Shown one piece after another: positions 3,778 to 41,686 of a DNA stretch of 64,000 bases. The stretch's first letter is position 1; every line of letters starts with the position of its first letter. The position numbers and the translations under genes were made by a program. The notes under the pieces are model-generated. The model was given only the letters and a program-made list of their open reading frames with translations, searched no databases and was not told where the DNA came from. This DNA comes from Candidatus Bathyarchaeia archaeon (lineage in GTDB: Archaea > Thermoproteota > Bathyarchaeia > Bathyarchaeales > Bathycorpusculaceae): the NCBI GenBank assembly GCA_038873195.1, contig JAVZEV010000001.1, positions 150,490 to 214,489 on the forward strand, given 5' to 3'.

Positions 3778-3830
3778 TTTCTACGTCATGCTCCGAAGCA
3801 GATACAATAAACGATACTTTTAGATAAGAG

Positions 3831-5138: not shown

Positions 5139-5261
5139 ATTGCATCCTTAATTTAGATAGAGAAGGAAACGATAAAAAGGCTACTAAAATTTGACTGAAG
5201 AAGGCGTATGCTCATTTGTTTTTCTCGTGTGAAAATTAAGAGGTGTTGGCGGTGGTAATTG

Positions 5262-5717: not shown

Positions 5718-5900
5718 TATGTCTATTTTAGGACATATCTCAAGTCTTTATAGTGCCTAAACGAAAATATAAAGGTTCATGCTTACCGCAGACATATAAA
5801 AGCATAACAGCGGCATATTGAACTATTCAATTTCTTACATAACCTAAATAAGCCAAAACATGAACAAGTCCTAAACAGGACACTGCCAGAGAGTGAAAAA

Positions 5901-6215: not shown

Positions 6216-6287
6216 AACACGAGCAGTGAATTACCGCATTTTAACCTAATCAAATCTTTTAAACAACTAGGCAAATAAGAATAGGGT

Positions 6288-7274
6288 ATGGTAAAGAAAT
6301 TAGGCAAAATTATAGTTGCCGACTTAGAGAAGCGAAGCAAAAAAGGACTTGAATTTGCAAAACAAATAATGCAAACAGAGAGAATGGAGCATCCCATACT
6401 ACGTGAAGCGCTTGAGCACTACCTTACACATTGGAAAGACTTTACGCATCCAGGCTTGTTCTCGATGGCATGTGAAGCGGTGGGAGGCAACATTGATGAT
6501 GCTGTGTCGGCGCAAGCGGCGATAGCTATGATGGCCGCGGCATTTGACATACACGACGACATTATAGACAGATCCAAAGCTAAGCATAAGATACCAACTG
6601 TTTATGGAAAGTTTGGCGCTGAAATTGCTCTTCTTCTTGGCAATGCGTTCCTAATAGAAGGTTTCAAACTTTTTGTTGATTCAACGATGTTGTTGCCAAA
6701 AGAAAAAGGAAAAGAAGCGCTTGATACGCTTAAGAGATTAATGTTTGAAGTTGGCAATGGACACGCCATTGAGGTTGGCTTAAAAGGAAGAAAAAAGGTT
6801 GCGCCAGATGATTATATGAAGGTTATCGGAATGAAGGCTGCGGGAATCGAGTTGGATATGCATTTTGGGGCTTTGTTTGGCGGTGGAAAGGATGCGGAAG
6901 TTGAGCAGTTAGCTAGACTAGGAAGAATTCTTGGAATATTAGTTTTGCTTCGGGAAGAGTTCATAGATGTTTTTGAAATCGAGGAGCTTCGCCAACGAAT
7001 CGTCGTACATGATCTGCCTGTGCCACTCTTATTTGCAATGCAAGATCCGGAGGCAAAGGGAAAAGTTAATACGGTTATTTCAAAACCGAAGATATCGCAG
7101 AACGATGTTAATGAATTGGTTGAGTGTACTCTTGAAGCGACGCCTGTTGTGAAGCTTAAGAAGAAAATGCAAGCTTTAATAGAAGAAGGGTCTAAATTTG
7201 CTAAGTGCTTACCTAATCCAAAACTAAGAAGTCAGCTTCAGACTTTTTTGTCTTTTATGCTTGAAGACTTATAA
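6288..7274 (+). CDS. Polyprenyl synthetase family protein with an atypical second Asp-rich motif
   Basis: First Asp-rich motif AAAFDIHDDIIDRS. The position of the second motif reads LLREEFIDVFE. Confidence 0.65.
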   Translation: MVKKLGKIIVADLEKRSKKGLEFAKQIMQTERMEHPILREALEHYLTHWKDFTHPGLFSMACEAVGGNIDDAVSAQAAIAMMAAAFDIHDDIIDRSKAKHKIPTVYGKFGAEIALLLGNAFLIEGFKLFVDSTMLLPKEKGKEALDTLKRLMFEVGNGHAIEVGLKGRKKVAPDDYMKVIGMKAAGIELDMHFGALFGGGKDAEVEQLARLGRILGILVLLREEFIDVFEIEELRQRIVVHDLPVPLLFAMQDPEAKGKVNTVISKPKISQNDVNELVECTLEATPVVKLKKKMQALIEEGSKFAKCLPNPKLRSQLQTFLSFMLEDL

Positions 7275-7450
7275 GTTTAAGCGTATATTCTGACGGGCAT
7301 ATCTTTCTTCTTTGCTCTTTTAACTGCTGCCTTCTTCATCTTATTCCCCTCACGTATTATTGTAGAACATATCTACTTATTAAGGTTTGTTGTTGAACAA
7401 GAATACAGAATGGTGATTAAGAAGAGTTTTATCTTTAAAAACCACACTCT

Positions 7451-8686
7451 TTGGTGAGTTGTGCTATGGTTTCAATGAGCGCGATTAGAAAGGAAATTGC
7501 TTGGCGGGATGCTGCACCAGCGATTTTTCTAGTGAATAACAGTTTTGTATGGTACGTATTGACTTATTTTAGTTTTGACATGGTTATAACCGACCTGAAA
7601 TTGTTTGCAACAGAAGAATTTAGTTTGTTCGCATTGTACTTTTTAGGAGTTGCAACTTCGGCAATTTTTGGTTCGAAATTTTTTCCACGCGCTCGTGTGA
7701 AATTCCTATATTTGTGGTTGTTTATGGGAGCAGTCGCGACATCACTTTTAATTACAGTTTTTAGTAATGATATGTTAGCCAATTTCTTGGTTGCTCTTTT
7801 TTTGGGCATTTCGGTTGGTTTAGGATTGCCTTCTTGTTTAAGTTATTTTGCCGAGTCAATACGTATTGAAAATCGTGGCTTCATAGGCGGAATAACATGG
7901 AGTGGTGTGGGATTTATTGTATTATCTCTGGCTCTTTTAATGAATATGCTTGGACAGTGGGAAGCAATTATCATGCTGACAATCTGGCGACTTTTTGGTG
8001 GTTTTAGTTTTCTGTTTTTAACTAGACAGAAAAAGCTGTTAGGTGAACAAAAATCCACGAGCTACTTAAACTTAATTCGTAAAAGAGAGGTATTGTTGTA
8101 TTTGTTTCCTTGGGTAATGTTTTCTCTCATAAATTTTGCAGAAACGCCAATTTTGGAAAGGGTGTTTGGTGTGGAATCTTTTGCTTTTGTGGGGATCGTA
8201 GGGTATGTTTTTATAGGAATTTTTGCGGTTGTTGGTGGTGTTCTTGCGGATGTTGTTGGAAGAAAACGTGTGGTTATTACGGGCTTTGTTATGCTAGGTA
8301 TTGAGTATGCAGCGTTGAGTGTTTTTTCTTCTTCTCCAGCTACTTTGTATTTGTTTATGACTCTTGATGGCATAACATGGGGGCTTTTTGTTTCTGTTTT
8401 CTTTATGGCTATTTGGGGGGATCTTGGCGAAGGTTATGTGAAGGAGAAGTTTTATGCTTTGGGTGGTCTTCCTTTTCTTCTTGCGAATTTTGTATCTATA
8501 CTAATTAGTCCTTATGCTGGTGCTATTTCTCCTACTGCGGCTTTTTCTTTTGCGAGTTTCTTTCTTTTTTTGGCGGTTATTCCTTTGATGTATGCTCCTG
8601 AGACTTTGCCTGAAAAGAAGATTAAGGAGAGAGAGCTTAAGGAATACGTTGAGAAGGCGAAGAAGATTAAGGAAAAGTATGGTTAG
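7451..8686 (+). CDS. MFS-like polytopic membrane transporter
   Basis: 411 aa with about 10-12 hydrophobic spans and a central basic loop (TRQKKLLGEQK). No diagnostic motif was recognised beyond the topology. Confidence 0.5.
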   Translation: MVSCAMVSMSAIRKEIAWRDAAPAIFLVNNSFVWYVLTYFSFDMVITDLKLFATEEFSLFALYFLGVATSAIFGSKFFPRARVKFLYLWLFMGAVATSLLITVFSNDMLANFLVALFLGISVGLGLPSCLSYFAESIRIENRGFIGGITWSGVGFIVLSLALLMNMLGQWEAIIMLTIWRLFGGFSFLFLTRQKKLLGEQKSTSYLNLIRKREVLLYLFPWVMFSLINFAETPILERVFGVESFAFVGIVGYVFIGIFAVVGGVLADVVGRKRVVITGFVMLGIEYAALSVFSSSPATLYLFMTLDGITWGLFVSVFFMAIWGDLGEGYVKEKFYALGGLPFLLANFVSILISPYAGAISPTAAFSFASFFLFLAVIPLMYAPETLPEKKIKERELKEYVEKAKKIKEKYG

Positions 8687-8713: not shown

Positions 8714-9826
8714 GTGATATTAACGAATGAGTGTAATCTCGAGTGTAGGTACTGTTTTGGTGAGGCGGTTGAGGATGTCGTTGACGATTTTTCTGGGTTT
8801 GAGGTTGACTATCATTTGCCGAAAAAGATGAGTTATGATGTGGATGTTTTGAAGAGTTTTTGTGAGAAGGACCCTGATTGCGTTTTGACTTTTTATGGTG
8901 GAGAACCACTGTTATGCGTTGATAATATTAAGCGGATTATGGATTGTGTGAAGGCTAAGTATTTTATGGTTCAGACGAACGGTTTGCTTTTGGATAGGCT
9001 GGGGTCTTCTTATGTTAATCGTTTTCACACTATTCTTGTTTCGATAGATGGCGACGAAGCCTTAACGGATTTTTACAGGGGAAAGGGCGTTTTTCGGAAA
9101 GTTATTGAAAATTTGCGGCTGATTAAGCGGAATGGTTTTGGGGGTGAGTTGATTGCGCGTATGACGGTTATGGAGCAGACGGACATTTATGAGCAGGTTA
9201 GGTGGCTTGTGGATAATGCTGAGTTTCCGTTTTCTTCTGTGCATTGGCAATTAAACGCGGGTTTCTGGAGCAGCGATTTTGCGCGGAGAAACTTTCAGAA
9301 ATGGAGCGAAGAAAGCTATAATCCTGGGGTTCGTATGCTTGTTAAGTTTTGGGTTGATCACATGGAGAAGGCTGGACGTGTTTTGCGGCTTTATCCTTTT
9401 TTGGGCGTTGCGCATTCGTTTTTGTTTGATGAAAAGGCGAGTTTGTTGCGTTGTGGTGGAGGATGGATTAACTATGCGGTTCAGACGGATGGGTTTATTG
9501 TTCCTTGTCCGACGATGTGGGGAATGAAAAACTACTATTTAGGGCATATTAGCAGTGCGGAGCCTTTGAAGTTGCCGCGGGTTTTTGTTGGTGAACCATG
9601 CACCAAATGTGAGATTTACGGGGTTTGTGGAGGTCGTTGTTTGTATGCGAATGTTACGAAAAGGTGGAATAGTGAAGCTTACCGTTTAGTGTGCGGCACT
9701 GTGAAGAATTTGGTGGACGCAATAACTGATGAAATGCCAAGAATTAAAGGGCTTATTGAAAATGGAAGCGTAAGCCTAAAAGACTTCGAATTCATGAAAT
9801 ACAACGGATGCGAAATAATCCCATAG
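8714..9826 (+). CDS. Radical SAM protein with a C-terminal SPASM domain
   Basis: CNLECRYC (CX3CX2C) at the extreme N-terminus. SPASM-type cysteines CGGGW...VPCP and CTKCEIYGVCGGRC. GTG start, 27 nt after the MFS stop and in the same frame. Confidence 0.85.
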   Translation: MILTNECNLECRYCFGEAVEDVVDDFSGFEVDYHLPKKMSYDVDVLKSFCEKDPDCVLTFYGGEPLLCVDNIKRIMDCVKAKYFMVQTNGLLLDRLGSSYVNRFHTILVSIDGDEALTDFYRGKGVFRKVIENLRLIKRNGFGGELIARMTVMEQTDIYEQVRWLVDNAEFPFSSVHWQLNAGFWSSDFARRNFQKWSEESYNPGVRMLVKFWVDHMEKAGRVLRLYPFLGVAHSFLFDEKASLLRCGGGWINYAVQTDGFIVPCPTMWGMKNYYLGHISSAEPLKLPRVFVGEPCTKCEIYGVCGGRCLYANVTKRWNSEAYRLVCGTVKNLVDAITDEMPRIKGLIENGSVSLKDFEFMKYNGCEIIP

Positions 9827-10027: not shown

Positions 10028-13012
10028 ATGATGAAGAATCAAAACGTAGAGAGGTTAAGTGTAAGCCAAGTTTCGAGCTGGGCTCTGCCAAACACCGAAG
10101 AGCTTCTAAGTCTACCAATTGATGAGCTTCTTGCTCGTTTAAACACTTCCATGTCTGGACTCTCTTCAGAAGAAGTGGAAGAACGCCTAAGAACATATGG
10201 TTACAACGAACTTGCCAAAAGAAAGAAGAGAACAGCTATTATCAATTTTCTTTCTCACTTCCGTAGTCCTTTGATAATTATATTATTGATTGCAGGGTTA
10301 ATTGCGGGTTTTCTTGGAGAGATTATAAACGTTGCAATTATATTTTCTATTGTTTTCGTGAGCGTTATACTTGACTTTTACCAAGAATCAAAAGCCGAAA
10401 AAGCTGCAGAAGCGCTGAAGGAAAAAGTAACCACAACTGCGACGGTTCTCAGAGACGGCGCCAAACAAGAAGTGAGACTTTCCGAGATTGTTCCAGGCGA
10501 TATCATATATCTTTCGGCTGGAGACATTGTGCCTGCAGATGCACGAGTCATCGCTGCAAAAGACCTATTCTTGAATCAGTCAGCGTTAACGGGAGAATCA
10601 TTTCCAGTAGAAAAAACATCTACACCAATAAAGGCAAAGGGAACAGCGCCCACAGAATGGAATAACTGCCTTTTTATGGGGACTTCAGTTGTAAGTGGGA
10701 CAGCAACAACTGTTGTGCTGAAAACTGGGAGTCACACAGAATATGGAAAAATCGCTAAAAGACTTGTCGAAAAAGAACCTGAAACAGAATTTGAAAGGGG
10801 AATCAAGGGTTTTGGTTTTCTAATAATGCAAGTCACCTTCCTTCTGGTGATGTTTGTTTTTTTCATAAACGCACTTTACAAGCGTGACGTTTTGGAGTCC
10901 CTCCTTTTTGCTGTGGCCTTGGCTGTTGGCTTGACGCCTGAACTTCTACCGATGATTATCACCGTAAACCTTTCCAAAGGAGCTCTTGCAATGTCTAAGA
11001 AAGGCGTTATCGTAAAGCGCCTAGCGGCTATCGAGAATTTCGGAAGCATGAATGTTTTATGTACCGATAAGACAGGTACGCTCACAGAGAACAAGATAAA
11101 GCTTGTATTGCATGTGGATATGGAAGGAAATGATGATGAAAAGGTGCTGTTGTACTCATTTCTGAACAGCTATCACCAGACAGGATTGAAAAGTCCACTC
11201 GATGAGGCTATACTTGGATATAAAGACATCGATGTGAAAGATTACCAGAAAATCGATGAAGTTCCATTCGATTTCATAAGAAGGCGAGTTTCTGTCGTTG
11301 TTGAGTATGAAAAACAGCGATATTTTATTGCTAAAGGAGCCCCTGAGGAGATAATCAAAGTATGTTCTTACTGTGAACATGGCGGCATGATTTCTGATTT
11401 AACAGACGAATTTCGCAGAAAAATTGATCAGAAATACTATGATTTGAGTGTTGAAGGGTTCAGAGTCTTAGCAGTTTCCTACAAGAAACTCAAGGAAGAG
11501 AAACCCGTATACTCTGTGAATGATGAGAGCGATATGGTGTTTTTAGGTTTTGTGGCGTTTCTTGACCCGCCTAAAGAAACAGCGCGGGAATCCTTGCAGT
11601 TATTAAGCAAGGCGGGAGTAGAACTAAAAATCCTCACCGGCGACAATGAATTAGTTACAAGGAAAGCATGTGCGCACTTAGATTTTGAAATCAAAGGAGT
11701 TGTCCTTGGAAGTGAAATTGCTCAGATGCATGATGATGCACTTTCTAGGGTTGTTGAAGAAGCAAACGTTTTTGCGAGAGTGACACCAGCCCAAAAAGAC
11801 AGAATAATTAATGCTTTAAAAAACAACGGACATGTGGTTGGCTTTTTAGGAGACGGAATCAACGACGCGCCTTCAATGAAGACCGCAGACATTGGCATAT
11901 CAGTAAATAACGCTGTGGACGTAGCCAAGGAATCTGCTGACATTATACTGCTGCAGAATGACCTGAGAATTCTTGATGAAGGCGTTTTAGAAGGGCGAAA
12001 AACTTTCGGCAACACTATGAAATACGTCATGATGGGAGTTAGTTCAAACTTCGGCAACATGTTCAGCGTCGCCGGAGCATCCCTTTTTCTGCCATTCTTG
12101 CCCATGCTTCCGATACAAATACTCTTAAACAATCTACTCTACGATTTCTCCCAGTCCACCATAACCACCGACAATGTAGATCCAGAATATGTTGAAAAAC
12201 CCAAACGATGGGACATTTCCTTCATAAGGAGATTTATGATATTCTTAGGACCGGTAAGCTCCATTTTTGACTTCCTAACATTCTTTATAATGCTACTTGT
12301 TTTCAACGCAACTGAGCCTCTGTTTCAAACAGCATGGTTTCTCGAGTCTTTATGTACACAAACCTTTGTCATATTTGTCATAAGAACAAGAAGAACGCCT
12401 TTCTACAAGAGCAAACCAAGCAGACTTTTACTTTTAAGCAGCCTAAGCATCGTTGGCTTTGCATTGATACTGCCATTCACGCCTTTAGGCGAATTATTCC
12501 ATTTTGTGCAACCACCGTTCACGTTTTTCCTAGTCTTAGCGGCATTGATTGGCGCTTACTTAGTGTTAACTGAAACCGTCAAAAAGTGGTTCTATAAACG
12601 ATATGCTTACCGCTTGGAGCAAGTTTTGATTCCGGCAAGACGAGCTGGACTTTACTTCAGCAAGACCGCAAGACTTGTTCAGGATATGGTGGCCATAATC
12701 TGCTTGCGTGCTGAAGACGAGATTTCCATCGATTCCTTATTAGCTGATCTAACACGAGGCGTAAGCTATCCTTTCGACATGGACCAAGTAGGCCATAACA
12801 TTCAACATCTAAGACGTGCAGGGCTCATTAGTATTAATTGGCGTCAAAGGACAATAAAACGAGAAAAGCCTATGAAAGACTATATAACGAAACAGGTGAT
12901 GACAAGCCAATTTTGGCCAAAAATAGCTGAAGATTGGCGAAAAATCAGCGACATCATTCAAGAGAAATACAAGAAAGTGAATACAGAATATCAGAACCTT
13001 TTATCTTCATAA
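10028..13012 (+). CDS. mgtA: Mg2+-importing P-type ATPase (MgtA-type) with an extra 133-aa C-terminal tail
   Basis: TGES, DKTGTLTEN, GLTPELLPMI, GDGINDAPSMK. Ten predicted TM helices, then a soluble extension. Confidence 0.85.
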   Translation: MMKNQNVERLSVSQVSSWALPNTEELLSLPIDELLARLNTSMSGLSSEEVEERLRTYGYNELAKRKKRTAIINFLSHFRSPLIIILLIAGLIAGFLGEIINVAIIFSIVFVSVILDFYQESKAEKAAEALKEKVTTTATVLRDGAKQEVRLSEIVPGDIIYLSAGDIVPADARVIAAKDLFLNQSALTGESFPVEKTSTPIKAKGTAPTEWNNCLFMGTSVVSGTATTVVLKTGSHTEYGKIAKRLVEKEPETEFERGIKGFGFLIMQVTFLLVMFVFFINALYKRDVLESLLFAVALAVGLTPELLPMIITVNLSKGALAMSKKGVIVKRLAAIENFGSMNVLCTDKTGTLTENKIKLVLHVDMEGNDDEKVLLYSFLNSYHQTGLKSPLDEAILGYKDIDVKDYQKIDEVPFDFIRRRVSVVVEYEKQRYFIAKGAPEEIIKVCSYCEHGGMISDLTDEFRRKIDQKYYDLSVEGFRVLAVSYKKLKEEKPVYSVNDESDMVFLGFVAFLDPPKETARESLQLLSKAGVELKILTGDNELVTRKACAHLDFEIKGVVLGSEIAQMHDDALSRVVEEANVFARVTPAQKDRIINALKNNGHVVGFLGDGINDAPSMKTADIGISVNNAVDVAKESADIILLQNDLRILDEGVLEGRKTFGNTMKYVMMGVSSNFGNMFSVAGASLFLPFLPMLPIQILLNNLLYDFSQSTITTDNVDPEYVEKPKRWDISFIRRFMIFLGPVSSIFDFLTFFIMLLVFNATEPLFQTAWFLESLCTQTFVIFVIRTRRTPFYKSKPSRLLLLSSLSIVGFALILPFTPLGELFHFVQPPFTFFLVLAALIGAYLVLTETVKKWFYKRYAYRLEQVLIPARRAGLYFSKTARLVQDMVAIICLRAEDEISIDSLLADLTRGVSYPFDMDQVGHNIQHLRRAGLISINWRQRTIKREKPMKDYITKQVMTSQFWPKIAEDWRKISDIIQEKYKKVNTEYQNLLSS

Positions 13013-23923: not shown

Positions 23924-24130
23924 GCCACTTCATCGCGATACATTAAATGCTTTAACAAGGAATAAAAACATAGAGGTTGCCGACTGCCGGAATTTACAGA
24001 AATCTGAAACGGGTTATAAAGAATGTTTAAATAGAAAGGAACTAACATATTTAAAACATATTTATATCATATTATGAAGAAGTATAACTTGTAACCCTAA
24101 TTCTCTTGCTTACCCGGAGGGAGAAATGAA

Positions 24131-24286
24131 TTGAAGTTAATCACACTGTATTTACCCGAACCCTATATTAAAGCTTTAGACCACCTCGTAAACGAAAAGT
24201 TTTACCCAAACCGTGCAGAAGCAATCCGCGTAGCTATCCGTGACTTAATTAATGATGAAGTTATGCGGTGGAAAAAGGTTGGCTAA
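24131..24286 (+). CDS. Ribbon-helix-helix (CopG-like) protein, CdrS-like, directly upstream of ftsZ
   Basis: Own translation; 51 aa, below the track cut-off. Sequence: (M)KLITLYLPEPYIKALDHLVNEKFYPNRAEAIRVAIRDLINDEVMRWKKVG. TTG start 10 nt after GGAGGG (24116-24121). TAA at 24284-24286, 1 nt before the ftsZ ATG. Confidence 0.65.
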   Translation: MKLITLYLPEPYIKALDHLVNEKFYPNRAEAIRVAIRDLINDEVMRWKKVG

Positions 24287-33365: not shown

Positions 33366-33965
33366 CTACGCTTCTTGTTTTTCTGCAGTTTGCGGTTGAG
33401 CTTCTGCTGGTTGCGCGTGTTCTTGTGCAAGCTCAGAAGTTGTTATTTCTTTGATTTCAACAACTGGCGGAGCTTCTTCGACAACTTTGATTTCAACTTT
33501 AGATCCATCAATATTTTCTGAAGGCTGTGGCTCAATTTTTTCTTGCACGCTCACATCTACTGTTAGGTTCAGCGTATTTGTCGAAAGCTGATTTATGGCT
33601 TCTTTAACAGCGCCTAACTCCTTCCTTGCAGTGTCAAGCCCAACAGACAGAAGGTTGATTTCGCGTTGATAAGTTTCATCGTCAACCTCGCCTGTCACAT
33701 GCTGAATCTCAAAGTTTGCAAGAAACATCTCCAACGTTTTGATTTGCTCTTCAAGCTCCTTCATTTTAGTATTCATTTTCTCCAGCAAAGCCTTCTGCTG
33801 CTTTTCAATTTCCTCCACTGTCGCGTCGATTTCCTTGTTGAAAAGTTCATGCGTCGGCGGCGAAATTTTGCCGGTGTTCAATAAATTGTCCAAAGCTTGC
33901 TTCTTTTTCTTCGCCATCTCATATTCTTCGCTTAATCGCTTAAAAGAGTGTTTCCACGAAATCAA
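33366..33965 (-). CDS. CdvA-like coiled-coil protein (no PRC-barrel domain)
   Basis: KQALDNLLNTGKISPPTHELFNKEID...LEMFLANFEIQHVTGEVDDETYQREINLL. This resembles the repeated 'G-E-I-x-x-x-x-Y' coiled-coil segments of CdvA. Acidic/Gln-rich tail. Confidence 0.45.
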   Translation of the reverse strand: MISWKHSFKRLSEEYEMAKKKKQALDNLLNTGKISPPTHELFNKEIDATVEEIEKQQKALLEKMNTKMKELEEQIKTLEMFLANFEIQHVTGEVDDETYQREINLLSVGLDTARKELGAVKEAINQLSTNTLNLTVDVSVQEKIEPQPSENIDGSKVEIKVVEEAPPVVEIKEITTSELAQEHAQPAEAQPQTAEKQEA

Positions 33966-34083: not shown

Positions 34084-35367
34084 TTATTTCCTCTTTCTGA
34101 ACAGTTGAACATTGTCAATTTCGCAGACATATTCAAACCCTGCTTCTACTAATTGTTTAGCCTCTTCCACAGTTTTAGCTGTTGCCGAATGGTATTCGTT
34201 GGTTTCAAAGTTGACTAGTTGAGTGTAGATTAAAGTCGTCTGCAAGTTTCTATGTCCCAAAGTTTTCATAACGTGCAGAATGTCTTTGGTTTTAGCGTAT
34301 TCCATTGTTGCCTTCCAATGCCTAAACGTGTGGAAGTGAATTTGCAGCAATCTTGGATTCTGAAGTTTAACTGCTGCTTTCCTTCTTTGCAAGCTGAAGC
34401 TTCCTTCCCAACTTGACAAGTGCCTATATCCAAAGATGCGGTCTGAAGTTTTCGGAAGACTGTTAAGCATCGCCATAAGCTCAGTTGAAATTTTGATAAC
34501 TCTGCACACGCCATGTTTTTCCGTGCTGTTCAATATTATAGTGTCCGTTTTAGTGTCAAGATCTTTCCATTGAAGCTTTAACGCTTCACCTACACGGATT
34601 CCTGTTTCTTTAAGCAGCCTCAACAATGCACTAAGCTTTTTTCCGCAGCTTGCTATTAAACTGTCAAGCTCGCTTTCTAAGGGAATGAAAGGCACTTTTC
34701 GGTTTGGCTTGTAAATTGGCGGTTTCCATTTTATTTGGTTTAACTCTGCAAATTTTCCGTAAACTATCACTGCCAAAGACTTTGTGGATTCACTCCATCT
34801 TTTCTGTTTAGCAATAACTTCTTTTACGCTTTCAGGGTTTGAAAGGTCTGCTCCATACTTCAACAGCAACTTCAAAGTTTTAACATAGTTTTGTATTGTT
34901 GCCTCGTTTATTCCATCGCTGGCTAACTGAAACATAAACTGAACAATTTTTCCTTTAACGTCTTGCTGTGCGGTTTCTGTGGCTCCCGCTTCCCGCTTTT
35001 CGCTTGTTGCTTTTGCCGCTTCCATGACAAGAACCTTCTTGCCATGTGCATCGCTATTGCATTGTGTCAAACAATTCTTAAAAGACTTTCCGCCTTTCCC
35101 ACTTTCCCCAAATGTGACAAAAGAAGACTGAGATTCAGCATTTGCTGAAAAAGAAGCTTGATTTAAGCTTGTTTTGTGACATTTGTCACTTGTAAATTTA
35201 TTTACAAAAGAAGCTGATTCTGAGCTTCTTTTGTCAGATTTCTGACTAAACCGATAACCACAGTTTCGGCAAAGCCACCTTTGAACTGTTGAACCATCAC
35301 TAAGATAACGCAAACCATCCTTATAGAGAAGCTGAGAACCACATTCTGGACAGCACAGCCGAGCCAT
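34084..35367 (-). CDS. Tyrosine recombinase/integrase with an N-terminal zinc ribbon
   Basis: CCPECG...CRNCG ribbon. Catalytic residues GIRVGEALKL (R), HTFRHW (HxxR), GHRNLQTTLIYTQL (H..Y). Confidence 0.9.
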   Translation of the reverse strand: MARLCCPECGSQLLYKDGLRYLSDGSTVQRWLCRNCGYRFSQKSDKRSSESASFVNKFTSDKCHKTSLNQASFSANAESQSSFVTFGESGKGGKSFKNCLTQCNSDAHGKKVLVMEAAKATSEKREAGATETAQQDVKGKIVQFMFQLASDGINEATIQNYVKTLKLLLKYGADLSNPESVKEVIAKQKRWSESTKSLAVIVYGKFAELNQIKWKPPIYKPNRKVPFIPLESELDSLIASCGKKLSALLRLLKETGIRVGEALKLQWKDLDTKTDTIILNSTEKHGVCRVIKISTELMAMLNSLPKTSDRIFGYRHLSSWEGSFSLQRRKAAVKLQNPRLLQIHFHTFRHWKATMEYAKTKDILHVMKTLGHRNLQTTLIYTQLVNFETNEYHSATAKTVEEAKQLVEAGFEYVCEIDNVQLFRKRK

Positions 35368-35379
35368 TAGCCTTCACTA

Positions 35380-36765
35380 TCAGTTTAACTTTTGGTTAAG
35401 ATATGTGTGGCTGAAGTTGGGGGTAGAATTTTCTACACCTGCAGAATTTTTTACCCCCATATCCGGCAACACATATCTCATGTAACGCTTATCCAACGGG
35501 TCAGGCTGCTCAACAATTAATCCAGAACCATCCAAAATTTTCAGTATATCCGAAGCCCTATCCCTTCCAATAACCTTATGATAAGTGTTGTAATACCATT
35601 GCTGGAACTCTTTTCGGTTAATGCCATTTTCTTTGTCTTCCAAATAGGGTTTTAAATGTTGAAATATGCGGAAGATTTCAGGCGGCAACCCTAACTCGTT
35701 AGCTTCCGCAACGCCATAGTAAAGCCTGAAGCCTGCCTCGACATCTTCGTCATTCACTATTATCGTGTCACCTACACGTTCGCGGTGCATAAAATTTAGC
35801 AATGCATGAGCTTTAATGATGGCTAAAAGTCGCGTAATGTCTCTTTGGTGTCTCGGAATTAGAAACTTATGGTCTTCGAGAAATTGCTGGTAAATTTGGC
35901 TGCGTTTTTCCTCTGGAATTCGCACATACTTTATCTGTGCTGCTTTCACATTTGCCACACGTTCTTTAAGTAAGCGCCTTGCTGGGTCTTCCATCATACG
36001 TTTATTGAAGGCTTCCCTATCCGCTTCCTTCTCAATTTTTAAAGCGATGGTTTCTCGCAGTTTCTCCTGATTAATTTCTGGACTAAGCAATAGTAAACGT
36101 GTCTTCTCCTGTTCCGCCATCGTGAATTTTGCCGTGCAGAAAACAACCGTAGCAAAGCCTTTGATGACAATGTTTTTAGTTCTTAACCCTGCCTTTTCCT
36201 TCTTATCCGTTATCCACGCTACGACTTCCTTCTCGTCGTGGCTTAACAATGCGCGCAATCTTTGAAGCAGTTGGTCATGTGGCTGGTCTAAAAAAATAAT
36301 GATTTTCTTCTGCAAATCAATAAGGTAGTAGCTGCCCTTTAACAGTTGATTCCACTCTCGCATTTTCTTTCTATACACGTTTTCGACATGTTCTCTGGAA
36401 GGTTTATCCATGTCAAACTCTAAATTTTCCTTAATCTTAGCCTTCGTAGGCTTCGCTTCCCAATTAACCGGGATTCCCTCTTTCAGCATCAGTTTGCCGT
36501 AACCGTGAAAAAAAGCCGTTGGCGAAGCATAACCCAACTTGATAACGTCTTCGTCTGGAAAGTACCAGCTTAACTCCAAAGGAATATACGATTTTCCCGT
36601 GCTGCTTTCAGCCAAATAGCCAATGTTAATCTGGTCTTCTTCAGTGTAAGTAAGCAGCATGGCAAGGAACGTTATAGCCTTGTTTTCGTCATCGTGCTTT
36701 ACGGTTGAACCTAAAACCTGAATCAAATCGTCAACGGTTAAAGTTTTATTTACATCTTCAGCCAA
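35380..36765 (-). CDS. P-loop ATPase, putative element replication/partition protein with a C-terminal winged-helix-like region
   Basis: Walker A-like AESSTGKSY, Walker B-like KIIIFLDQ. 461 aa. In an operon between the RHH and the integrase. Confidence 0.45.
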   Translation of the reverse strand: MAEDVNKTLTVDDLIQVLGSTVKHDDENKAITFLAMLLTYTEEDQINIGYLAESSTGKSYIPLELSWYFPDEDVIKLGYASPTAFFHGYGKLMLKEGIPVNWEAKPTKAKIKENLEFDMDKPSREHVENVYRKKMREWNQLLKGSYYLIDLQKKIIIFLDQPHDQLLQRLRALLSHDEKEVVAWITDKKEKAGLRTKNIVIKGFATVVFCTAKFTMAEQEKTRLLLLSPEINQEKLRETIALKIEKEADREAFNKRMMEDPARRLLKERVANVKAAQIKYVRIPEEKRSQIYQQFLEDHKFLIPRHQRDITRLLAIIKAHALLNFMHRERVGDTIIVNDEDVEAGFRLYYGVAEANELGLPPEIFRIFQHLKPYLEDKENGINRKEFQQWYYNTYHKVIGRDRASDILKILDGSGLIVEQPDPLDKRYMRYVLPDMGVKNSAGVENSTPNFSHTYLNQKLN

Positions 36766-36866: not shown

Positions 36867-37016
36867 CTAAGCAGTTTGGAGAAACTGCTCCAACGCTGCA
36901 CGAACCACGTCTGAAAGGTTCTTAAATTTCCCTTGCCTGATTAATTCCTGTATTTTCTCCCTAAATTCTGAAGGCAATCGCAATGCAATTCGTTCGTCAT
37001 GTTTTTGGGCTTTCAA
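36867..37016 (-). CDS. Ribbon-helix-helix (CopG-like) protein, element copy A
   Basis: Own translation; 49 aa, TTG start. Sequence: (M)KAQKHDERIALRLPSEFREKIQELIRQGKFKNLSDVVRAALEQFLQTA. Paralogous to 40502-40648. Confidence 0.6.
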   Translation of the reverse strand: MKAQKHDERIALRLPSEFREKIQELIRQGKFKNLSDVVRAALEQFLQTA

Positions 37017-37076
37017 GTTTTCACCTTAAAAAGCTGTGTCAAACGCTTATATAGGAGTACACTGACATTTTTACAT

Positions 37077-37538
37077 ATGTTTGACATGTCAGTTGCTGAC
37101 ATATTAAAGGAGCATGGAAAATGGATTGAGAGCAGCAAATTCCTCAAAAAAGTAAGAGAGAAACTAAACATAAGCGAAAGACAAGCATACAGATTAATCA
37201 AAAAAGATAAGCTAATTCTAAAGCTTACTCTCCAAGATCGAAGAGTTCTTTATGGATTAGCTGAATTTGGTTTACCAACCTCTGAAGCTGAGAAGCCTTC
37301 AGAAATTGAGTTAATCAAAGAAGACGCTGTTAAAGGAAACGATGTTGAAGCATGGAATAGGCTTGTCCTTTATGCAGACACCCATAATCTAAACCCGCAC
37401 CCTACAGCATTATACAACGAAAACATAGCCAAGTTGAAAAAGGAAAATTCAATTTATCTTTTGACGGGTGTTCCAGACGAAATAGAGTTTAAAATTAGAA
37501 GAAACATTATTCGATATTGGCTAAGAAAATTAGAATAA
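37077..37538 (+). CDS. Hypothetical HTH-containing protein (element)
   Basis: Start moved to M27 of the track ORF, about 25 nt after TTATATA, which removes the overlap with the RHH gene. KLNISERQAYRLIKKDK looks like an HTH. Confidence 0.4.
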   Translation: MFDMSVADILKEHGKWIESSKFLKKVREKLNISERQAYRLIKKDKLILKLTLQDRRVLYGLAEFGLPTSEAEKPSEIELIKEDAVKGNDVEAWNRLVLYADTHNLNPHPTALYNENIAKLKKENSIYLLTGVPDEIEFKIRRNIIRYWLRKLE

Positions 37539-37580: not shown

Positions 37581-37868
37581 TTACATTCCTCTTCTAACGT
37601 AGCCGAGGATTATCACTGCTCCAACTATTATTGGAATGATTACGAGCAGTGTCATTGCAACCCAAATGTTGCTTTGCAATGCAGCCCAAGTGCTGTTCGC
37701 TTGCGCAGTCCAGCCGGCTTGAGATTGGCTGTTAACCAAGCTTTGAATCACTATGATAGCTATCAACAGCGAAACCATGATTCCAACCAGAACGCCAATT
37801 ACTCCGCCGCCGCCCATAGGTGCCTCAGCCCTCTTGTCTTCGAGAAACTTCCTCAGTTTTTTAAACAC
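37581..37868 (-). CDS. Small two-TM membrane protein. Candidate spindle-virus-type major capsid protein.
   Basis: 95 aa. Charged leader MFKKLRKFLEDKRAEAP, helix 1 VIGVLVGIMVSLLIAIIVIQSLVNS, polar linker with NST, helix 2 LLVIIPIIVGAVIILGYVRR. Confidence 0.45.
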   Translation of the reverse strand: MFKKLRKFLEDKRAEAPMGGGGVIGVLVGIMVSLLIAIIVIQSLVNSQSQAGWTAQANSTWAALQSNIWVAMTLLVIIPIIVGAVIILGYVRRGM

Positions 37869-37943
37869 TATACTCTTTCACCTCTTTCTTTTTCCATGTA
37901 TAAAAGTTGAATGGTAAAGCGTATTTAAGCACGATAATAGTGA

Positions 37944-37959
37944 ACTATAATATTATAGT
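37944..37959. promoter_or_regulatory. Perfect 16-bp palindrome ACTATAATATTATAGT upstream of the two-TM gene
   Basis: Read directly. It lies between the stop at 37977 and the start at 37868. Confidence 0.35.
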
Positions 37960-37976
37960 GACTGGTTTATGGACTA

Positions 37977-38489
37977 TTATTCCAGAATTTTTGCGGCTTC
38001 CCTAAGCAAAACTGCACAGGCTTTGCGATACTTTGGATAGAGCGTTTCCGAAGCTTCCAGGAATTCTCGGAATAAACCGTCACCTTCACATTGAACGTTT
38101 AAACTTTGCGAATGCGCCATTCTCCGCTTCATTTTCTTAGCTATTGACGTGTGAGTCACTTGAAAGCCGATTTCCCTCATTTTAGCGGCTATTTTGCGGA
38201 GGCTTAACCCTTCTTTTTGCAGTTTCTCTATGAAAGCGTAAGTTTCCTCGTTCCACACGATAGGCTTTAGCTCGGAAGGCTTAGCCGCTACATTCTCGTT
38301 GTTGCTGTCGGATTTCTTTAAGAAAAAGAATAGTTTGCCATTATATGCTTGCTGAAAAACCTTAACGCCTTCCTTACTTAACTGTTCATTCCATTCAGGC
38401 TTAAAAAGTGCATGTGGAATTAGAAGGCACGAGCCGAAAAACGTGTCTTCCAAAGGGAAGCTTTCGCTTAACTGTTCATATAAACCCAT
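37977..38489 (-). CDS. Hypothetical protein with an HTH-like segment (element)
   Basis: 170 aa. GLSLRKIAAKMREIGFQVTHTSIAKKMKR resembles a helix-turn-helix. Confidence 0.4.
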   Translation of the reverse strand: MGLYEQLSESFPLEDTFFGSCLLIPHALFKPEWNEQLSKEGVKVFQQAYNGKLFFFLKKSDSNNENVAAKPSELKPIVWNEETYAFIEKLQKEGLSLRKIAAKMREIGFQVTHTSIAKKMKRRMAHSQSLNVQCEGDGLFREFLEASETLYPKYRKACAVLLREAAKILE

Positions 38490-38518: not shown

Positions 38519-38635
38519 AAATTTAAACTTTAACTTAAAAATATCAAAGATGCAGACTCTGCATCTTTGAAAGATGTTTTGGGAAAAATTTAAACTTTAA
38601 CGCAACCTGAAGTTACCGCCACACGCCGTGTGGCG
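38519..38635. repeat. 16-bp direct repeat AAATTTAAACTTTAAC (38519-38534 and 38586-38601) flanking a 12-bp-stem hairpin (38544-38570). A second hairpin CGCCACAC-GCC-GTGTGGCG follows at 38617-38635.
   Basis: Read directly in the intergenic region of the element. Confidence 0.7.
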
Positions 38636-38840
38636 AATAGCGTATCATAATATTGGCAACACAGAGTTAAGCTTCAACGCAACCGTAACAGACTTGCCAG
38701 ACGGCTGGACAGTCAGCATGGACAAGACAAGCTGGATTCTACCCGTTGGCGCAACAACAAACCTAACCGTGACACTTCAGCTAACAAAAGCCTTGCCAAT
38801 TGGCTCGTACAGTTTCAACCTAGCCTTCTACATACCATAA
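38628..38840 (+). pseudogene. Probable C-terminal remnant of a CARDB/NEW3-like surface-protein gene
   Basis: The 70-aa ORF starts with GTG inside a hairpin. ELSFNATVTDLPDGWTVSMDKTSWILPVGATTNLTVTLQLTKALPIGSYSFNL is a single beta-sandwich domain end, with no signal peptide. Confidence 0.35.
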
Positions 38841-39282: not shown

Positions 39283-39630
39283 TTATCCATGTTCTAAAAC
39301 CTCATGCAGTTTCTCGATAGGCTTAACTTCAGTTTGAGAAGTTTGAGGCTTCCGCTTATCCACAATGTCCAATTTCCTTTTCCTATCTAAACCGTAGCGT
39401 TTCAAAACCTTCTCGAAGGGAACACCACACGCCAACTCATTAACTGCATTAAGAAACATGGCTTTCCCAATATTGCCTTCAGCTATTGGATAATATGAAT
39501 CTTCACTATCCAGAACGCTTTTAATAATGAAAAGCAACTCTGCAAAGCTTAACGGTTCAGTGTAGGCTTCCACAAGCACGAGAATATCGTTAGGCCCTTT
39601 CTTACCATTAACCAAATGCAAAACAACCAT
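39283..39630 (-). CDS. Hypothetical protein (element)
   Basis: 115-aa ORF. Its start overlaps the upstream stop (39630). Confidence 0.4.
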   Translation of the reverse strand: MVVLHLVNGKKGPNDILVLVEAYTEPLSFAELLFIIKSVLDSEDSYYPIAEGNIGKAMFLNAVNELACGVPFEKVLKRYGLDRKRKLDIVDKRKPQTSQTEVKPIEKLHEVLEHG

Positions 39631-39974
39631 TACCGCTTAACCTCTCGCTTTTTCCTTCCCACAGTTGAACCATTCCTATACACCCAATAAAACCAGCCTT
39701 CCGAATTCACGCAGCCCCCAGCATGCTCATTAAGAAACTTCAGCAATGCCTTATGCTCAGGATTGTTATAGTCTTCGCTTACCTCAAACTCTCCCTTCGC
39801 ACCTTCCCGCTTTTGCCAATTTATCTTACCAGCGTCAAAAGGCAACTTAACCGAAGGCTTAGCCTCTCCCATCAACTTTTCAATTTGCCTCCGAAATTTA
39901 ACAACTGAAGCCTCAACACCATTAAGAAAATCAATAATGTCCTCCGCTAAAATCTTCAAATCCTCACCGGCCAA
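39630..39974 (-). CDS. Hypothetical protein (element)
   Basis: Track ORF 39630-40187 shortened to TTG 39974, which overlaps the stop of the 166-aa ORF. The C-terminal part KLPFDAGKINWQKREGAKGEFEV...GWFYWVYRNGSTVGRKK looks like genuine coding sequence. ATG 39872 is an alternative start. Confidence 0.35.
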   Translation of the reverse strand: MAGEDLKILAEDIIDFLNGVEASVVKFRRQIEKLMGEAKPSVKLPFDAGKINWQKREGAKGEFEVSEDYNNPEHKALLKFLNEHAGGCVNSEGWFYWVYRNGSTVGRKKREVKR

Positions 39975-40464
39975 TTTTCCGCCACCCCTCCAACCGACTC
40001 TTAACCCTAAGAAAATGCAACTCACACAACCACAACACACCTTCACAATCAAACGCCTTAAAAACCGCCTTCCGACTGCAAAACGCACAACACTCCAAAG
40101 AACCACGAACAACACCCTCACCACCCACAGACTCCTCCGCATACCTACGCACACGCTTGACGGCACGCTCAACAACCAAATTCTCAATCTTAATCGGCTT
40201 GATAGTACGACTAAGGTGCACCTTGCCTTCTAACCATCCGAAAATCATGGGTTCGAGCACGTGGCAAATGCTCAAAGAATTGCGCTTTATTTCCGATTTA
40301 AAGGCATTCCAAAGCTCCAAATTACACTTGAAACTAACACTTTTTCGAGGCGCATCTAAACGAAAGTGCACCTTTGTAATACTCTCAGTGTTATCGTTTT
40401 GGTTTTGTTGTGTTGTGTTTTGGTTTTTGGAAAGTTTTATATCTGGTTTCTTGCTATTTTCCAT
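39964..40464 (-). CDS. Hypothetical protein with a C-terminal Cys cluster (element)
   Basis: 166 aa. Asn/Gln-rich N-terminus, then CCAFCSRKAVFKAFDCEGVLWLCELH. Confidence 0.4.
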   Translation of the reverse strand: MENSKKPDIKLSKNQNTTQQNQNDNTESITKVHFRLDAPRKSVSFKCNLELWNAFKSEIKRNSLSICHVLEPMIFGWLEGKVHLSRTIKPIKIENLVVERAVKRVRRYAEESVGGEGVVRGSLECCAFCSRKAVFKAFDCEGVLWLCELHFLRVKSRLEGWRKIGR

Positions 40465-40501: not shown

Positions 40502-40648
40502 TTAGCTTGCTTGTACTTGGGTTTCGAGAAATTGTTTGAGTGCGGTTCTGATTATTTCGGTTATAGTTTTGAATTTTCCAGCTTTGATTAGAGCCTCGAG
40601 CTGTTGTCTTTCTGTTTGGTTTATGCGGATTCCAATTCTTCTGTTCAT
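40502..40648 (-). CDS. Ribbon-helix-helix (CopG-like) protein, element copy B
   Basis: Own translation, 48 aa: MNRRIGIRINQTERQQLEALIKAGKFKTITEIIRTALKQFLETQVQAS. The track instead lists a low-complexity ORF in another frame (40491-40760). Confidence 0.6.
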   Translation of the reverse strand: MNRRIGIRINQTERQQLEALIKAGKFKTITEIIRTALKQFLETQVQAS

Positions 40649-40661
40649 GTTTTTCACCGTC

Positions 40662-40716: not shown

Positions 40717-41280
40717 ATGTCCCAAAAGGACACTAAAGAAAAAAGAAAGGAACGAATCAAAGAGTTTCTAAGAGAATTTGGAGCTTTATCAACAACTCAG
40801 CTCACTAATAAGATTAACGAGAAATATCAGCTTCACTATAACAAGAAAACTATCCAGAGAGACATTTCCGAGCTTATGTTAGAAGGATGTGTAAAACCGA
40901 ATCCGCCTATAGGAAGAGAACAAACATATTCCTTACCAGAAAAATCTAATACTAAAACAGTTTCAACCTATCTGCTGACTCGTTTATGGAGAGAGGAAGA
41001 GGAAATCGAAAAGCTGAATCTTTATAATGAGTCTGTGAGAGCATATATGAAAGCAAGATTGTTATGGCTGAAACTTCCTTCACCATTCAAACAGAAACTT
41101 TCGCCAGCCTTTAAAAAAGTCAGTGAAGCCCTTGCATCAATTTCAGCGGAATCTCTTTTGTTTGATATAAGGGAGCTAAGGAAAATAAGGTATCTGCGAG
41201 AAATAGGTATTCCATTCTTAATTGAAAACATATCCTTAGTTTTACATGAAATTGAGAAGGAAGGTGCTTCTAATGAGTGA
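40717..41280 (+). CDS. Hypothetical protein with an N-terminal winged-helix-like domain (element)
   Basis: RIKEFLREFGALSTTQLTNKINEKYQLHYNKKTIQRDISELMLEG. Confidence 0.45.
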   Translation: MSQKDTKEKRKERIKEFLREFGALSTTQLTNKINEKYQLHYNKKTIQRDISELMLEGCVKPNPPIGREQTYSLPEKSNTKTVSTYLLTRLWREEEEIEKLNLYNESVRAYMKARLLWLKLPSPFKQKLSPAFKKVSEALASISAESLLFDIRELRKIRYLREIGIPFLIENISLVLHEIEKEGASNE

Positions 41281-41686
41281 GTATGAGCACGGATTAAACC
41301 ACTCGAGCGGTTCATTCACTTTCACTCGAGTTACCACGCCAAAAAAAGAAGCTAAAATCACAGTCGGATTAACCATAAAGCCAACACTCTTAGCTGAAGC
41401 ACGAAAGCACAACCTAAACCTAAGCCGAATCCTCGAACAAGCATTAAACTCAATCCTCGAATACCTAGCTCAACAAAACAAAACCGAAAGCTCTATATCT
41501 CTTACCGTCGGTTCTCTTCCGAGAGAAACGACACGGGCCCGTAGCTCAGTAAGGACAGAGCACCGGGCTTTTAACCCGGGGGTCCCGGGTTCAAACTTGG
41601 AAGGTTTGTGCCTTTCCAGGGGACAGTTCCCGGCGGGCCCGTTTATAGGCGTATTGACATTATTTTTTAAAATTTTGTGGTTGTGA
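41273..41686 (+). CDS. CcdA/RHH-like small protein whose reading frame continues through tRNA-Lys. The 3' end is unreliable.
   Basis: KITVGLTIKPTLLAEARKHNLNLSRILEQALNSILEYL. ATG 41273 overlaps the upstream stop. There is no stop before the tRNA gene that starts at 41535. Confidence 0.35.
   Translation: MSEYEHGLNHSSGSFTFTRVTTPKKEAKITVGLTIKPTLLAEARKHNLNLSRILEQALNSILEYLAQQNKTESSISLTVGSLPRETTRARSSVRTEHRAFNPGVPGSNLEGLCLSRGQFPAGPFIGVLTLFFKILWL
41535..41641 (+). tRNA. tRNA-Lys (anticodon UUU) with a 32-nt insertion, a putative non-canonical intron, in the T-loop (41596-41627)
   Basis: Hand-folded. Acceptor GGGCCCG/CGGGCCC, D stem GCTC/GAGC, anticodon arm CCGGG-CTTTTAA-CCCGG, T stem CCGGG/CCCGG. 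The T-loop TTCAAA|T is interrupted after position 59. CCA is not encoded. Confidence 0.8.

Follow-up and report, generated by a model that had tools for sequence, protein, structure and literature searches.

What is a small hydrophobic protein with the look of a spindle-virus capsid subunit doing on an integrated element whose other recognisable genes are those of a plasmid? The question is raised by a 64,000-nucleotide stretch of the genome of a Candidatus Bathyarchaeia archaeon (GenBank assembly GCA_038873195.1, contig JAVZEV010000001.1, positions 150,490 to 214,489), referred to below as the window, in which an element of ~7.5 kb (~34.0-41.5 kb of the window) carries, on the reverse strand at 37581-37868, an open reading frame (ORF) of 95 residues. 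An earlier, sequence-only reading had described this ORF as having the two-helix layout of spindle-virus capsid proteins, and had suggested that the element could be a provirus in a host lineage for which no such virus was described. The answer reached here is that the ORF product is most likely a capsid protein of the VP1/VP3 type found in spindle-shaped archaeal viruses, and that the element is, with a probability that we would call moderate, plasmid-derived and integrative, with this VP1/VP3-homologous capsid subunit on board, and acts as a satellite, or a plasmid-virus hybrid, of a Huangdivirus-like helper.

The layout of the ORF is as first described: the sequence was given exactly, translation starts from a GTG codon, and hydropathy and structure prediction agree. 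Scanned with an 11-residue window, the protein has a charged leader (residues 1-17), a Gly run (19-22), a first hydrophobic segment (~21-44), a polar linker (~45-66) containing the sequon N58-S-T60, a second hydrophobic segment (~70-90) and a basic end, VRRGM; the transmembrane prediction that had been proposed as a check thus finds two hydrophobic segments split by a sequon-bearing polar linker. AlphaFold2, supplied with a 41-sequence alignment, predicts a helical hairpin with helices at residues 2-10, 20-46 and 55-92, at a mean pLDDT of 85. In window coordinates, all on the reverse strand, the leader up to its conserved K-R-A|E motif (residues 1-14, MFKKLRKFLEDKRA) occupies 37827-37868, the putative cleavage site being recognised from conservation of the motif; hydrophobic helix 1 (residues 20-46, pLDDT 85-94, also seen in the hydropathy) occupies 37731-37811; the sequon, in the polar turn, lies at 37689-37697; and helix 2 (residues 55-92, with a hydrophobic core at ~70-90, from the same two methods) lies at 37593-37706. 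A presumed upstream control region (37878-37959, same strand), recognised by reading the sequence and by comparison with two related loci, L003 and L012 (loci and contigs are referred to by L numbers throughout), contains a Shine-Dalgarno-like GAGGTGA 5' of the start codon (37878-37884) and a TATA-like box, CTTAAATA (37922-37929), both of which recur at the matching position in L003 and L012. A perfect 16-nt palindrome, ACTATAATATTATAGT (37944-37959), directly upstream of the TATA-like box, is matched at the equivalent position in L003 and L012 by an imperfect one, and is a candidate operator to which a ribbon-helix-helix (RHH) or helix-turn-helix (HTH) protein of the element might bind.

The ORF is a real gene, and belongs to a conserved family that is under strong purifying selection. 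A word-indexed search returned 40 close relatives, three of them annotated as hypothetical proteins of Candidatus Bathyarchaeia metagenome-assembled genomes (MAGs), while an exhaustive profile search returned a superfamily of 128 clusters at 50% identity, each of 63-188 residues and with a common layout. Seven residues (W53, A57, N58, T60, W61, N67 and W69) are invariant in the 41 sequences of the close family, the sequon is present in all 41 of them and in 123 of the 128 distant members, and the leader, variable in length across the close family, has a conserved ending, D-K/T-R-A-E/Q. Between genomes, the ratio of nonsynonymous to synonymous substitution rates (dN/dS) of the capsid gene is 0.06-0.15, with synonymous sites near saturation. 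A scan of the GTDB representative genomes for the family found two loci only, and tblastn with the ORF and two distant superfamily members against a phage and archaeal-virus collection gave no match. The bathyarchaeal close matches that are named carry the locus tags QXN36, QXV01 and QXL57, and not QMYA, the tag of the Huangdivirus record discussed below.

Two observations on the distribution of the family may be added. A member 54% identical to the ORF, adjoining a p69-like gene, occurs in a Thermoplasmatota MAG (L011 4826-5035, JAPDJO010000089.1), so that either the family reaches beyond Bathyarchaeia or this contig has been mis-binned. In addition, a 96%-identical capsid protein (P0001, QXN36_01620) and a helicase identical to that of the window element (QXN36_01285) belong to the same assembly and are ~67 genes apart, from which it seems that the capsid gene or the element probably occurs a second time in this source genome, outside the window.

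As to what the family is, direct comparisons give a signal for homology with VP1/VP3 that appears specific but modest. The ORF matches a single PHROG, phrog_11172 (the SSV VP1 family; E 0.0025, residues 6-87), which is also matched by 27 of the 41 family members (best E 5.4e-5); by way of calibration, SSV1 VP1 itself scores E 1.9e-73 with this model, and the accepted homologue His1 VP21 only 0.029. When the close-family profile was compared with 177,635 distinct PDB sequences, the sole match at E <= 10 was SSV19 VP1 (7xdi; E 0.011), covering both helices, and no pilin was matched; with the broad superfamily profile, VP1 again ranks first, archaeal flagellins and pilins coming next (E 0.07-0.3). 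Profile-profile comparison with 24 fusellovirus VP1/VP3 sequences using hhalign gave a probability of 48% (E 1.8e-4) for the close family and 74% (E 2.8e-5) for the 128-cluster superfamily, the latter over 66 columns that include the cleavage motif, with K-K-G-Q / K-R-A-E placed opposite the T-K-G-E processing site of SSV1 VP1. These values exceed those of the controls: the fusellovirus profile against His1 VP21 gave 13.7%, an unrelated membrane protein with two helices (89 residues, from a related virus contig) gave 0.4% and 0.2%, and reversed alignments gave 0.8% and 7%. Layout-preserving shuffles (n=40) scored 17.7+-4.5, with a maximum of 31.4, where the real close-family score is 29.7, and 19.5+-4.2, with a maximum of 29.1, where that of the superfamily is 33.7. 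The profile-profile check suggested in the sequence-only reading gave this modest signal for VP1/VP3; for His1 VP21, which had been named alongside them, it yielded a weak local match with probabilities of only 6-27%. In general character, too, the protein is of VP1/VP3 type, being a hairpin of two hydrophobic alpha-helices in fewer than ~100 residues, with what would be, to judge from its sequence, an inter-helix N-glycosylation site, N58-S-T60, invariant in 41 of 41.

It might be objected that the VP1 matches are compositional, the protein being simply some small membrane protein with two helices and no relation to capsids, such as a VirB2/CedA1-type or type IV pilin, a holin or a channel fragment. 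The E-values for VP1 are indeed weak, many transmembrane families, MscS_TM, holin and TrbC among them, are also weakly matched, and archaeal flagellins and pilins do follow VP1 in the PDB search with the broad profile. However, VP1 is the top or sole PDB match among 177,635 sequences that include many pilins and membrane proteins, while the two-helix control protein reached just 0.2-0.4%, and shuffles and reversals (with one exception among the shuffles, noted below) scored lower than the real alignments. Moreover, no conjugation, pilus-assembly or lysis genes were found nearby in scans with Pfam, PHROG and further libraries, and the neighbours of family members, where they can be classified, are always markers of a virus module or of a small element, some 15 mostly short contigs being markerless. 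The same survey speaks against the idea that the family might be a cellular one, since no locus with classifiable neighbours lay in a purely cellular neighbourhood. A generic membrane protein is thus a distinctly improbable identification.

Two specific candidates of this kind were considered and found unsupported. A type IV pilin or archaellin would be alike in its leader and helix 1, but here a second hydrophobic helix replaces the globular domain; archaellins score E 0.07-0.16 in the PDB against the broad profile, neither Pilin_N nor flagellin is among the 25 Pfam families listed of the 157 matched by the superfamily, and the N-terminal 56 residues give no PDB pilin match. For a conjugative pilin of the VirB2/TrbC/CedA1 type, TrbC is matched by only two of the 128 superfamily members, at E 0.0046 or weaker, and there is no transfer ATPase in the element.

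The context in which relatives of the gene are found is stronger evidence for its identity as a capsid gene than are the direct sequence matches. In virus-like contigs of 10-50 kb (L004, L006, L007, L009, L014, L016, L017, L031 and L036) it forms part of a conserved, virion-like module, whose order is a ~500-590-residue protein, a small two-helix protein, a ~85-residue protein, a ~730-920-residue protein, a ~135-residue protein, a ~100-residue protein, a ~69-residue gene on the opposite strand and then the capsid gene; most of 56 loci from JGI metagenomes have at least one gene of this module beside the capsid gene. The P-loop ATPase of L004 matches phrog_5484 (E 2.4e-24) and SSV1 B251 (E 2e-12), and when compared with 50,697 phage and archaeal-virus records it matched only 36, all of them from crenarchaeal viruses of spindle or ovoid shape (fuselloviruses, APSV1 or a guttavirus). 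A fusellovirus-type ATPase was detected in L004/L020 and L036, and a B251-type ATPase and other virion genes accompany the capsid gene in L004/L020, L036, L046 and L052. A basic protein of 78 residues, likewise encoded by L004, resembles SSV1 VP2 at its start (WIQKALK as against WVQKAIK, giving a motif W-I/V-QKA-I/L-K); in L036, an independent contig that has the ATPase too, this VP2-like protein is 76% conserved. Together with the matches to phrog_11172 and SSV19 VP1 and the hhalign probabilities of 48-74%, above controls, the viral context of most relatives bears out the original reading of the ORF as capsid-like.

A spindle-shaped provirus of Bathyarchaeia, Huangdivirus, has in fact been described (Duan et al., ISME Commun 2024, PMC10848311). 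It has genes for an integrase, a B251-like ATPase, VP2, VP1, VP3 and a glycosyltransferase, and the family Huangdiviridae was ratified by the ICTV (the international committee for virus taxonomy) in 2025. The suggestion that the host lineage is one in which no such virus is described was therefore wrong. The published gene order of Huangdivirus is integrase - ATPase - g18 - VP2 - 585-residue protein - VP1 (94 residues) - 577-residue protein ... 65-residue gene - VP3 (98 residues) (PMC10848311), the last being Huangdivirus_28 (QMYA01000001, 14649-14945). That of L004 and L036 is integrase - B251-like ATPase - x - VP2 - large - two-helix - large ... small gene - two-helix, in which the window capsid family takes the position of VP3; L009 in addition encodes a glycosyltransferase, as Huangdivirus does. 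Since the two maps agree, the capsid assignment is in accord with the published annotation of the equivalent gene, and the family would be the orthologue of Huangdivirus VP3.

One contig deserves separate mention. L046 (17.8 kb, with few large ORFs) has a capsid gene at 2406-2615 (54% identity), a p115-like gene (see below) at 9515-9679 and an ATPase-like gene at 11029-11676, the ATPase being of B251 type and 40% identical to that of L004; it may occupy an intermediate place between small elements and full viruses.

If most relatives of the gene are viral, it is natural to ask whether the window element is itself a provirus. The sequence-only reading placed the ORF within an integrase-bearing element with RHH genes, and this was confirmed. 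At the left end, all on the reverse strand, lie a gene for a XerA-like tyrosine recombinase/integrase with an N-terminal zinc ribbon (34084-35367; PF00589, E 2.3e-19; phrog_1, E 2.4e-29), then that for p461 (35380-36765), which is predicted to be an MCM-like AAA+ replicative helicase with a C-terminal winged helix and to be the replication protein of the element, and, upstream of the helicase gene, one for a CopG-type RHH regulator (36867-37016; PF01402, E 2.5e-5). The assignment of p461 comes from its family and from an AlphaFold2 model (pLDDT 76), for which Foldseek finds MCM helicases at E 1e-5 to 1e-3; its C-terminal domain is a MarR-like winged helix-turn-helix (wHTH). The family has at least 1949 members, among them fusions with Prim-Pol (PF09250) and PriCT-1 (PF08708) domains; p461 found no match in plasmid and phage collections.

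Explained as a provirus, the element would be complete and inducible, belonging to a spindle-shaped or other membrane-containing virus, perhaps a minimal one whose particles are built from the capsid protein together with p115 and p170, the products of two neighbouring genes. It has an integrase, a tRNA-adjacent site, RHH regulators and an intact, selected capsid gene within a conserved p115-p170-capsid cassette, and tiny archaeal viruses with helical-hairpin capsid proteins do exist, for instance the clavavirus APBV1, at 5.3 kb. On the other hand, the element amounts to just 7.5 kb; Pfam, PHROG and tblastn found in it no B251-type ATPase, VP2 or other conserved virion-module gene, it has no large receptor-binding or terminal-fibre protein, and none of the ~10 module genes that accompany the capsid gene in virus-like contigs is present. 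If a provirus is defined by a complete morphogenetic module between att sites, the capsid gene is all of that module that the element holds, and nor does it co-encode with this gene a B251-type ATPase and other virion genes, as a viral genome would. Comparison by tblastn in both directions between ORFs of the virus contigs and proteins of the element showed that the capsid gene is the only one in common, and the same search with virus-contig ORFs found no decayed remnants of virion genes, which together imply that the element is not a provirus of that virus type. Furthermore, the integrase and helicase backbone also exists without any capsid gene, in L018. The earlier proposal of a provirus accordingly does not hold for viruses of the kind represented by these contigs, and a complete provirus of any kind is an improbable explanation.

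Comparison with related small elements points instead towards a plasmid-like backbone with an added cassette. The capsid gene and the gene for p170 are common to L003, L012 and L013, which come from other Bathyarchaeia MAGs; L003 in addition has the integrase and p115, while L012 and L013 in addition have the helicase and the RHH gene. The order RHH-helicase-integrase is kept in L012, L013 and L018, and in the last of these (3628-7991) the backbone, at 82-89% identity and beside host RIO1/eIF-1A genes, is found without either the capsid gene or p170. Homologues of p170 adjoin the capsid gene in L003, L012, L013, L042, L051 and L062, and several of these loci are considerably diverged: in L042 and L062, p115-like (41-46% identity) and p170-like genes lie beside capsid genes that are 49-57% identical to that of the window, and in L051 a capsid gene of 46% identity occurs with a p170-like gene and an RHH gene. 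In a nearest-neighbour analysis of a 78-residue core, the capsid genes of small elements are interleaved with viral ones, their nearest neighbours in viral contexts showing 79-91% core identity; for the window gene, the nearest relatives include virus-context copies at 79-86%, the core of L003 is 86% identical to the virus-context copies in L004 and L026 but 81% identical to that of the window, and the core of L042 is 87% identical to a virus-context copy. On such sequence comparisons the capsid gene of the element appears to track those of the viruses, and its recurrence across diverged elements, taken with the interleaving, suggests that the cassette is a selected, recurrent cargo of the plasmid-like backbone.

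These results also bear on the possibility that the capsid gene is a functionless leftover of an old provirus or of recombination. It is the sole virus-derived gene on the element, and a short Ig-like ORF fragment lies nearby, at 38628-38840. Set against this, dN/dS is 0.06-0.15 with synonymous sites near saturation, the ORF is intact in at least four genomes and retains its Shine-Dalgarno and TATA motifs, and the cassette has been kept over deep divergence with no pseudogene remnants of adjoining virion genes; a leftover is for these reasons a very improbable explanation indeed.

What is favoured, then, is a satellite-like integrative element. It is a small replicon of ~7.5 kb, with an MCM-like helicase that has homologues fused to Prim-Pol and PriCT-1, and its virion module is incomplete, consisting of the capsid gene only. 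The mechanism that we infer comprises encapsidation, dependence on a helper, and cleavage of the leader and glycosylation of the capsid protein. By analogy with SSV1 VP1, the capsid protein would insert into the membrane in hairpin form, would have its short, charged leader removed at the conserved K-R-A|E, and may be N-glycosylated at the invariant N-x-T in the turn, after which the mature protein would polymerise into a capsid lattice. The element would replicate using its own MCM-like helicase and, in co-infection with a Huangdivirus-like helper, would supply or co-assemble its own capsid subunit and take the remaining virion proteins from the helper in order to spread. One metagenome (Ga0164310) has both a locus of small-element type, L065, and one of virus type, L022, a co-occurrence that is only suggestive as a hint of helper dependence.

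The same facts could be read differently, in that the capsid homologue may have been exapted, either as a dominant-negative decoy against related viruses (for superinfection exclusion or defence) or for membrane remodelling in vesicle-mediated plasmid transfer. The gene is under selection on a non-viral backbone, and the core identity of 79-91% between small-element copies and those in viral contexts is what co-assembly would need, whether the protein acts as a parasite or as a poison. However, scans with Pfam, PHROG and NCBIfam found no defence genes in the element (the PADLOC library not being among the searches), and the closest precedent, in which a plasmid Rep is combined with a spindle-virus capsid gene, has been interpreted as a satellite. 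Exaptation is regarded as unlikely, and the available data fit it and the satellite reading alike and do not separate the two.

A number of points weigh against the satellite reading or its premises and should be set beside it. Every direct sequence match to VP1/VP3 is weak, at E 1e-2 to 3e-5, and one of the 40 layout-preserving shuffles attained the real close-family score. At E <= 0.1 the Pfam model for VP1/VP3, PF06281, did not recover the ORF, Pfam scans of the 128 superfamily members taken one by one gave scattered noise over 157 membrane families, and in a Foldseek comparison of the hairpin model with the PDB and BFVD no match fell below E 1, hairpins of helices not being discriminated by this means. 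The proposed orthology with Huangdivirus VP3 has gene order as its sole basis, and where metagenome contigs are short their context label depends on one or two marker genes. As regards the element itself, there is no helper provirus within the 64-kb window; no direct repeat of 11 nt or more links the integrase end with the tRNA end, nor is there a second copy of either half of the tRNA; and no circular form was seen, there being no terminal overlap in the fetched contigs, a test that is uninformative for loci that are sub-ranges of longer contigs. Finally, a scan of IMG/VR (~2.9 million viral contigs) with the family alignment found no relatives. The search of viromes for contigs having both the ORF and the ATPase, as put forward in the earlier reading, thus succeeded in part: such contigs were found (L004/L020 and L036), but the IMG/VR scan recovered no relative, from which it seems that this group of virus-like contigs has been overlooked by standard virus-detection pipelines.

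A broader interpretation can be offered only tentatively. Under it, the window element, L003, L012/L013, L042, L051 and L062 would all belong to a hitherto unrecognised class of Bathyarchaeia satellites that are integrative and capsid-encoding (or even of minimal virus-like agents that are autonomous), in which the capsid gene is matched to that of the helpers by repeated exchange, and the leader would be a class-III-type signal cut by the host prepilin peptidase; we think this combination unlikely. The leader and helix 1 do resemble a class III (prepilin or archaellin) signal, with a short basic leader, [KR]-[GA] and a hydrophobic helix, the motifs compared being KRA|E in the window, the superfamily consensus KKGQ and the known cleavage site of SSV1 VP1, TKG|E (L001 12567-13001). 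This likeness, and the fact that archaellins come next after VP1 in the PDB search, together suggest maturation by the host prepilin peptidase, a proposal not indicated in the titles and abstracts of the papers that a literature search on the point returned.

The remaining genes of the element and its surroundings can be described more briefly. To the left, the neighbour of the element is a host CdvA-like gene (33366-33965, from a profile match). Beside the capsid gene and divergent from it lies p179 (36999-37538, forward strand, from the ORF list), of unassigned function and uncertain start codon; genes of similar size occupy the equivalent position in L012, L013 and L018, with no BLAST similarity. 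On the reverse strand beyond the capsid gene are p170 (37977-38489), an HTH-containing protein with weak matches to DUF6471 and GcrA HTH domains, and the constant neighbour of the capsid gene in small elements, and p115 (39283-39630), of unassigned function and 86% identical in L003, the third member of the p115-p170-capsid cassette. Near the right end come a second RHH gene (40502-40657, reverse strand) and p187 (40717-41280, forward strand), a wHTH protein, probably regulatory, with a homologue in L062. A CcdA/RHH-like ORF (41246-41660, forward strand; CcdA-like match and tRNA calls) runs into tRNA-Lys(UUU) (41535 to ~41660, forward strand), which is the probable right boundary and integration target; in L003 an ORF homologous to it abuts tRNA-Val.

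The T-loop of this tRNA-Lys appears to hold an insertion of ~32 nt (...GGTTCAAA[CTTGGAAGG...GGACAGT]TCCCGGCGGGCCCG), which looks like a non-canonical intron; ARAGORN and Rfam end the tRNA at 41612 and 41608 respectively, missing the true 3' acceptor strand. Upstream of it (41480-41510) a ~25-nt stretch, AAACCGAAAGCTCTATATCTCTTA, is conserved in L003 (5290-5320) though the tRNAs differ (Lys-UUU as against Val-GAC), and could be the element end or a tRNA promoter supplied by the element. Beyond the tRNA on the right there is a gene for a surface protein with CARDB and InlB-repeat domains; this 675-residue protein was considered as a possible fibre protein and rejected, since it has those domains, resembles none of the proteins of the virus contigs and has the look of a surface protein of the host. 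Within the element, a 70-residue ORF (38628-38840, forward strand) with weak matches to NEW3 and Ig-like domains (E 0.004-0.008) sits where genes are sparse, between p170 and p63, and may have been part of a larger surface-protein gene. At 39630-40464 (reverse strand), ORFs of 185 and 166 residues overlap in different frames; the latter ends in a Cys-rich, zinc-finger-like motif, while the N-terminal third of the former resembles non-coding read-through. Elsewhere in the window, an RHH gene that overlaps the start of the ftsZ ORF (24119-24280, forward strand) is 59% identical to an RHH protein of L007.

As to why such a locus should matter, Bathyarchaeia are among the most abundant archaea of sediments and hot springs, yet descriptions of spindle-shaped viruses infecting them extend to only one genome. 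The ORF adds a new member to the VP1/VP3-like capsid superfamily, in a virus group with one published genome so far; its family links dozens of unannotated metagenome contigs sharing its virion module, and the family alignment offers a practical marker in searches for such viruses and elements. To judge from the at least 1949 members of the helicase family, the plasmid-like integrative backbone onto which the capsid gene has moved is very widespread. Were the small elements to be satellites, the parasitising of spindle viruses by capsid-encoding elements, which has until now been proposed for halophiles only, would be general in archaeal viromes and would extend to integrated elements; and were the leader a substrate of prepilin peptidase, the protease that matures spindle-virus capsid proteins, long unidentified, would have been found.

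It remains to place the locus among known systems. With the VP1/VP3 proteins of fuselloviruses (SSV1; SSV19 VP1, 7xdi; PF06281; PHROG 11172/5402) the capsid protein shares a mature size of ~75-95 residues, two hydrophobic helices, a polar turn with an N-x-S/T sequon, a short basic C-terminus and a leader ending in a basic residue, a small residue and then Glu (TKG|E in SSV1, KRA|E in the window), and the viruses of its relatives co-encode a B251-type ATPase and a VP2-like protein. It differs in that its sequence similarity is marginal, the ORF being undetected by the Pfam model, in the motifs W-x3-A-N-x-T-W and N-I-W, which are specific to the window family, in the length of its leader (14 residues, as against 65 in SSV1 VP1) and in its host, Bathyarchaeia rather than Sulfolobales. 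The likeness to His1 VP21 (Halspiviridae) is more distant than that to fusellovirus VP1: the two-helix layout with its sequon-bearing turn is shared, the weak local hhalign match falls at A-N-x-T-W / S-T-S-S-W, and the Pfam family His1_capsid is matched by three of the 128 superfamily members. His1 VP21 is not known to have a cleaved leader. Huangdivirus (Xuanyuanvirus yandi) has a host of the same class as the window element, which in contrast to the virus-like contigs has no other Huangdivirus gene.

As an element rather than a protein, the system may be compared with pSSVx and pSSVi of Saccharolobus, which are also small plasmid-virus hybrids and need a fusellovirus helper for packaging; pSSVi is, moreover, integrative. 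Neither of them encodes a capsid protein, however, pSSVx having an ATPase instead, and their packaging has been shown experimentally, whereas that of the window element is put forward by analogy. Among documented systems, the nearest in kind are the SRCEs of haloarchaea and nanohaloarchaea, elements of 2.7-9 kb that combine a plasmid Rep with a spindle-virus capsid gene and/or ATPase and have been interpreted as satellites (Zhou et al. 2025, bioRxiv 10.1101/2025.02.15.638363; Nat Microbiol 2025). Both kinds are small (2.7-9 kb, as against ~7.5 kb), and in both an incomplete morphogenetic module of a spindle virus goes together with a replication protein of plasmid type. The SRCEs, however, are circular episomes of hypersaline habitats, with rolling-circle replication (RCR) Reps or archaeo-eukaryotic primase (AEP) primase-helicases, whereas the window element is integrated, has a tyrosine integrase, a primase-less MCM-like helicase and the p115-p170 pair but no ATPase, and belongs to Bathyarchaeia; it would thus be a new, integrative variant of the capsid-encoding satellites.

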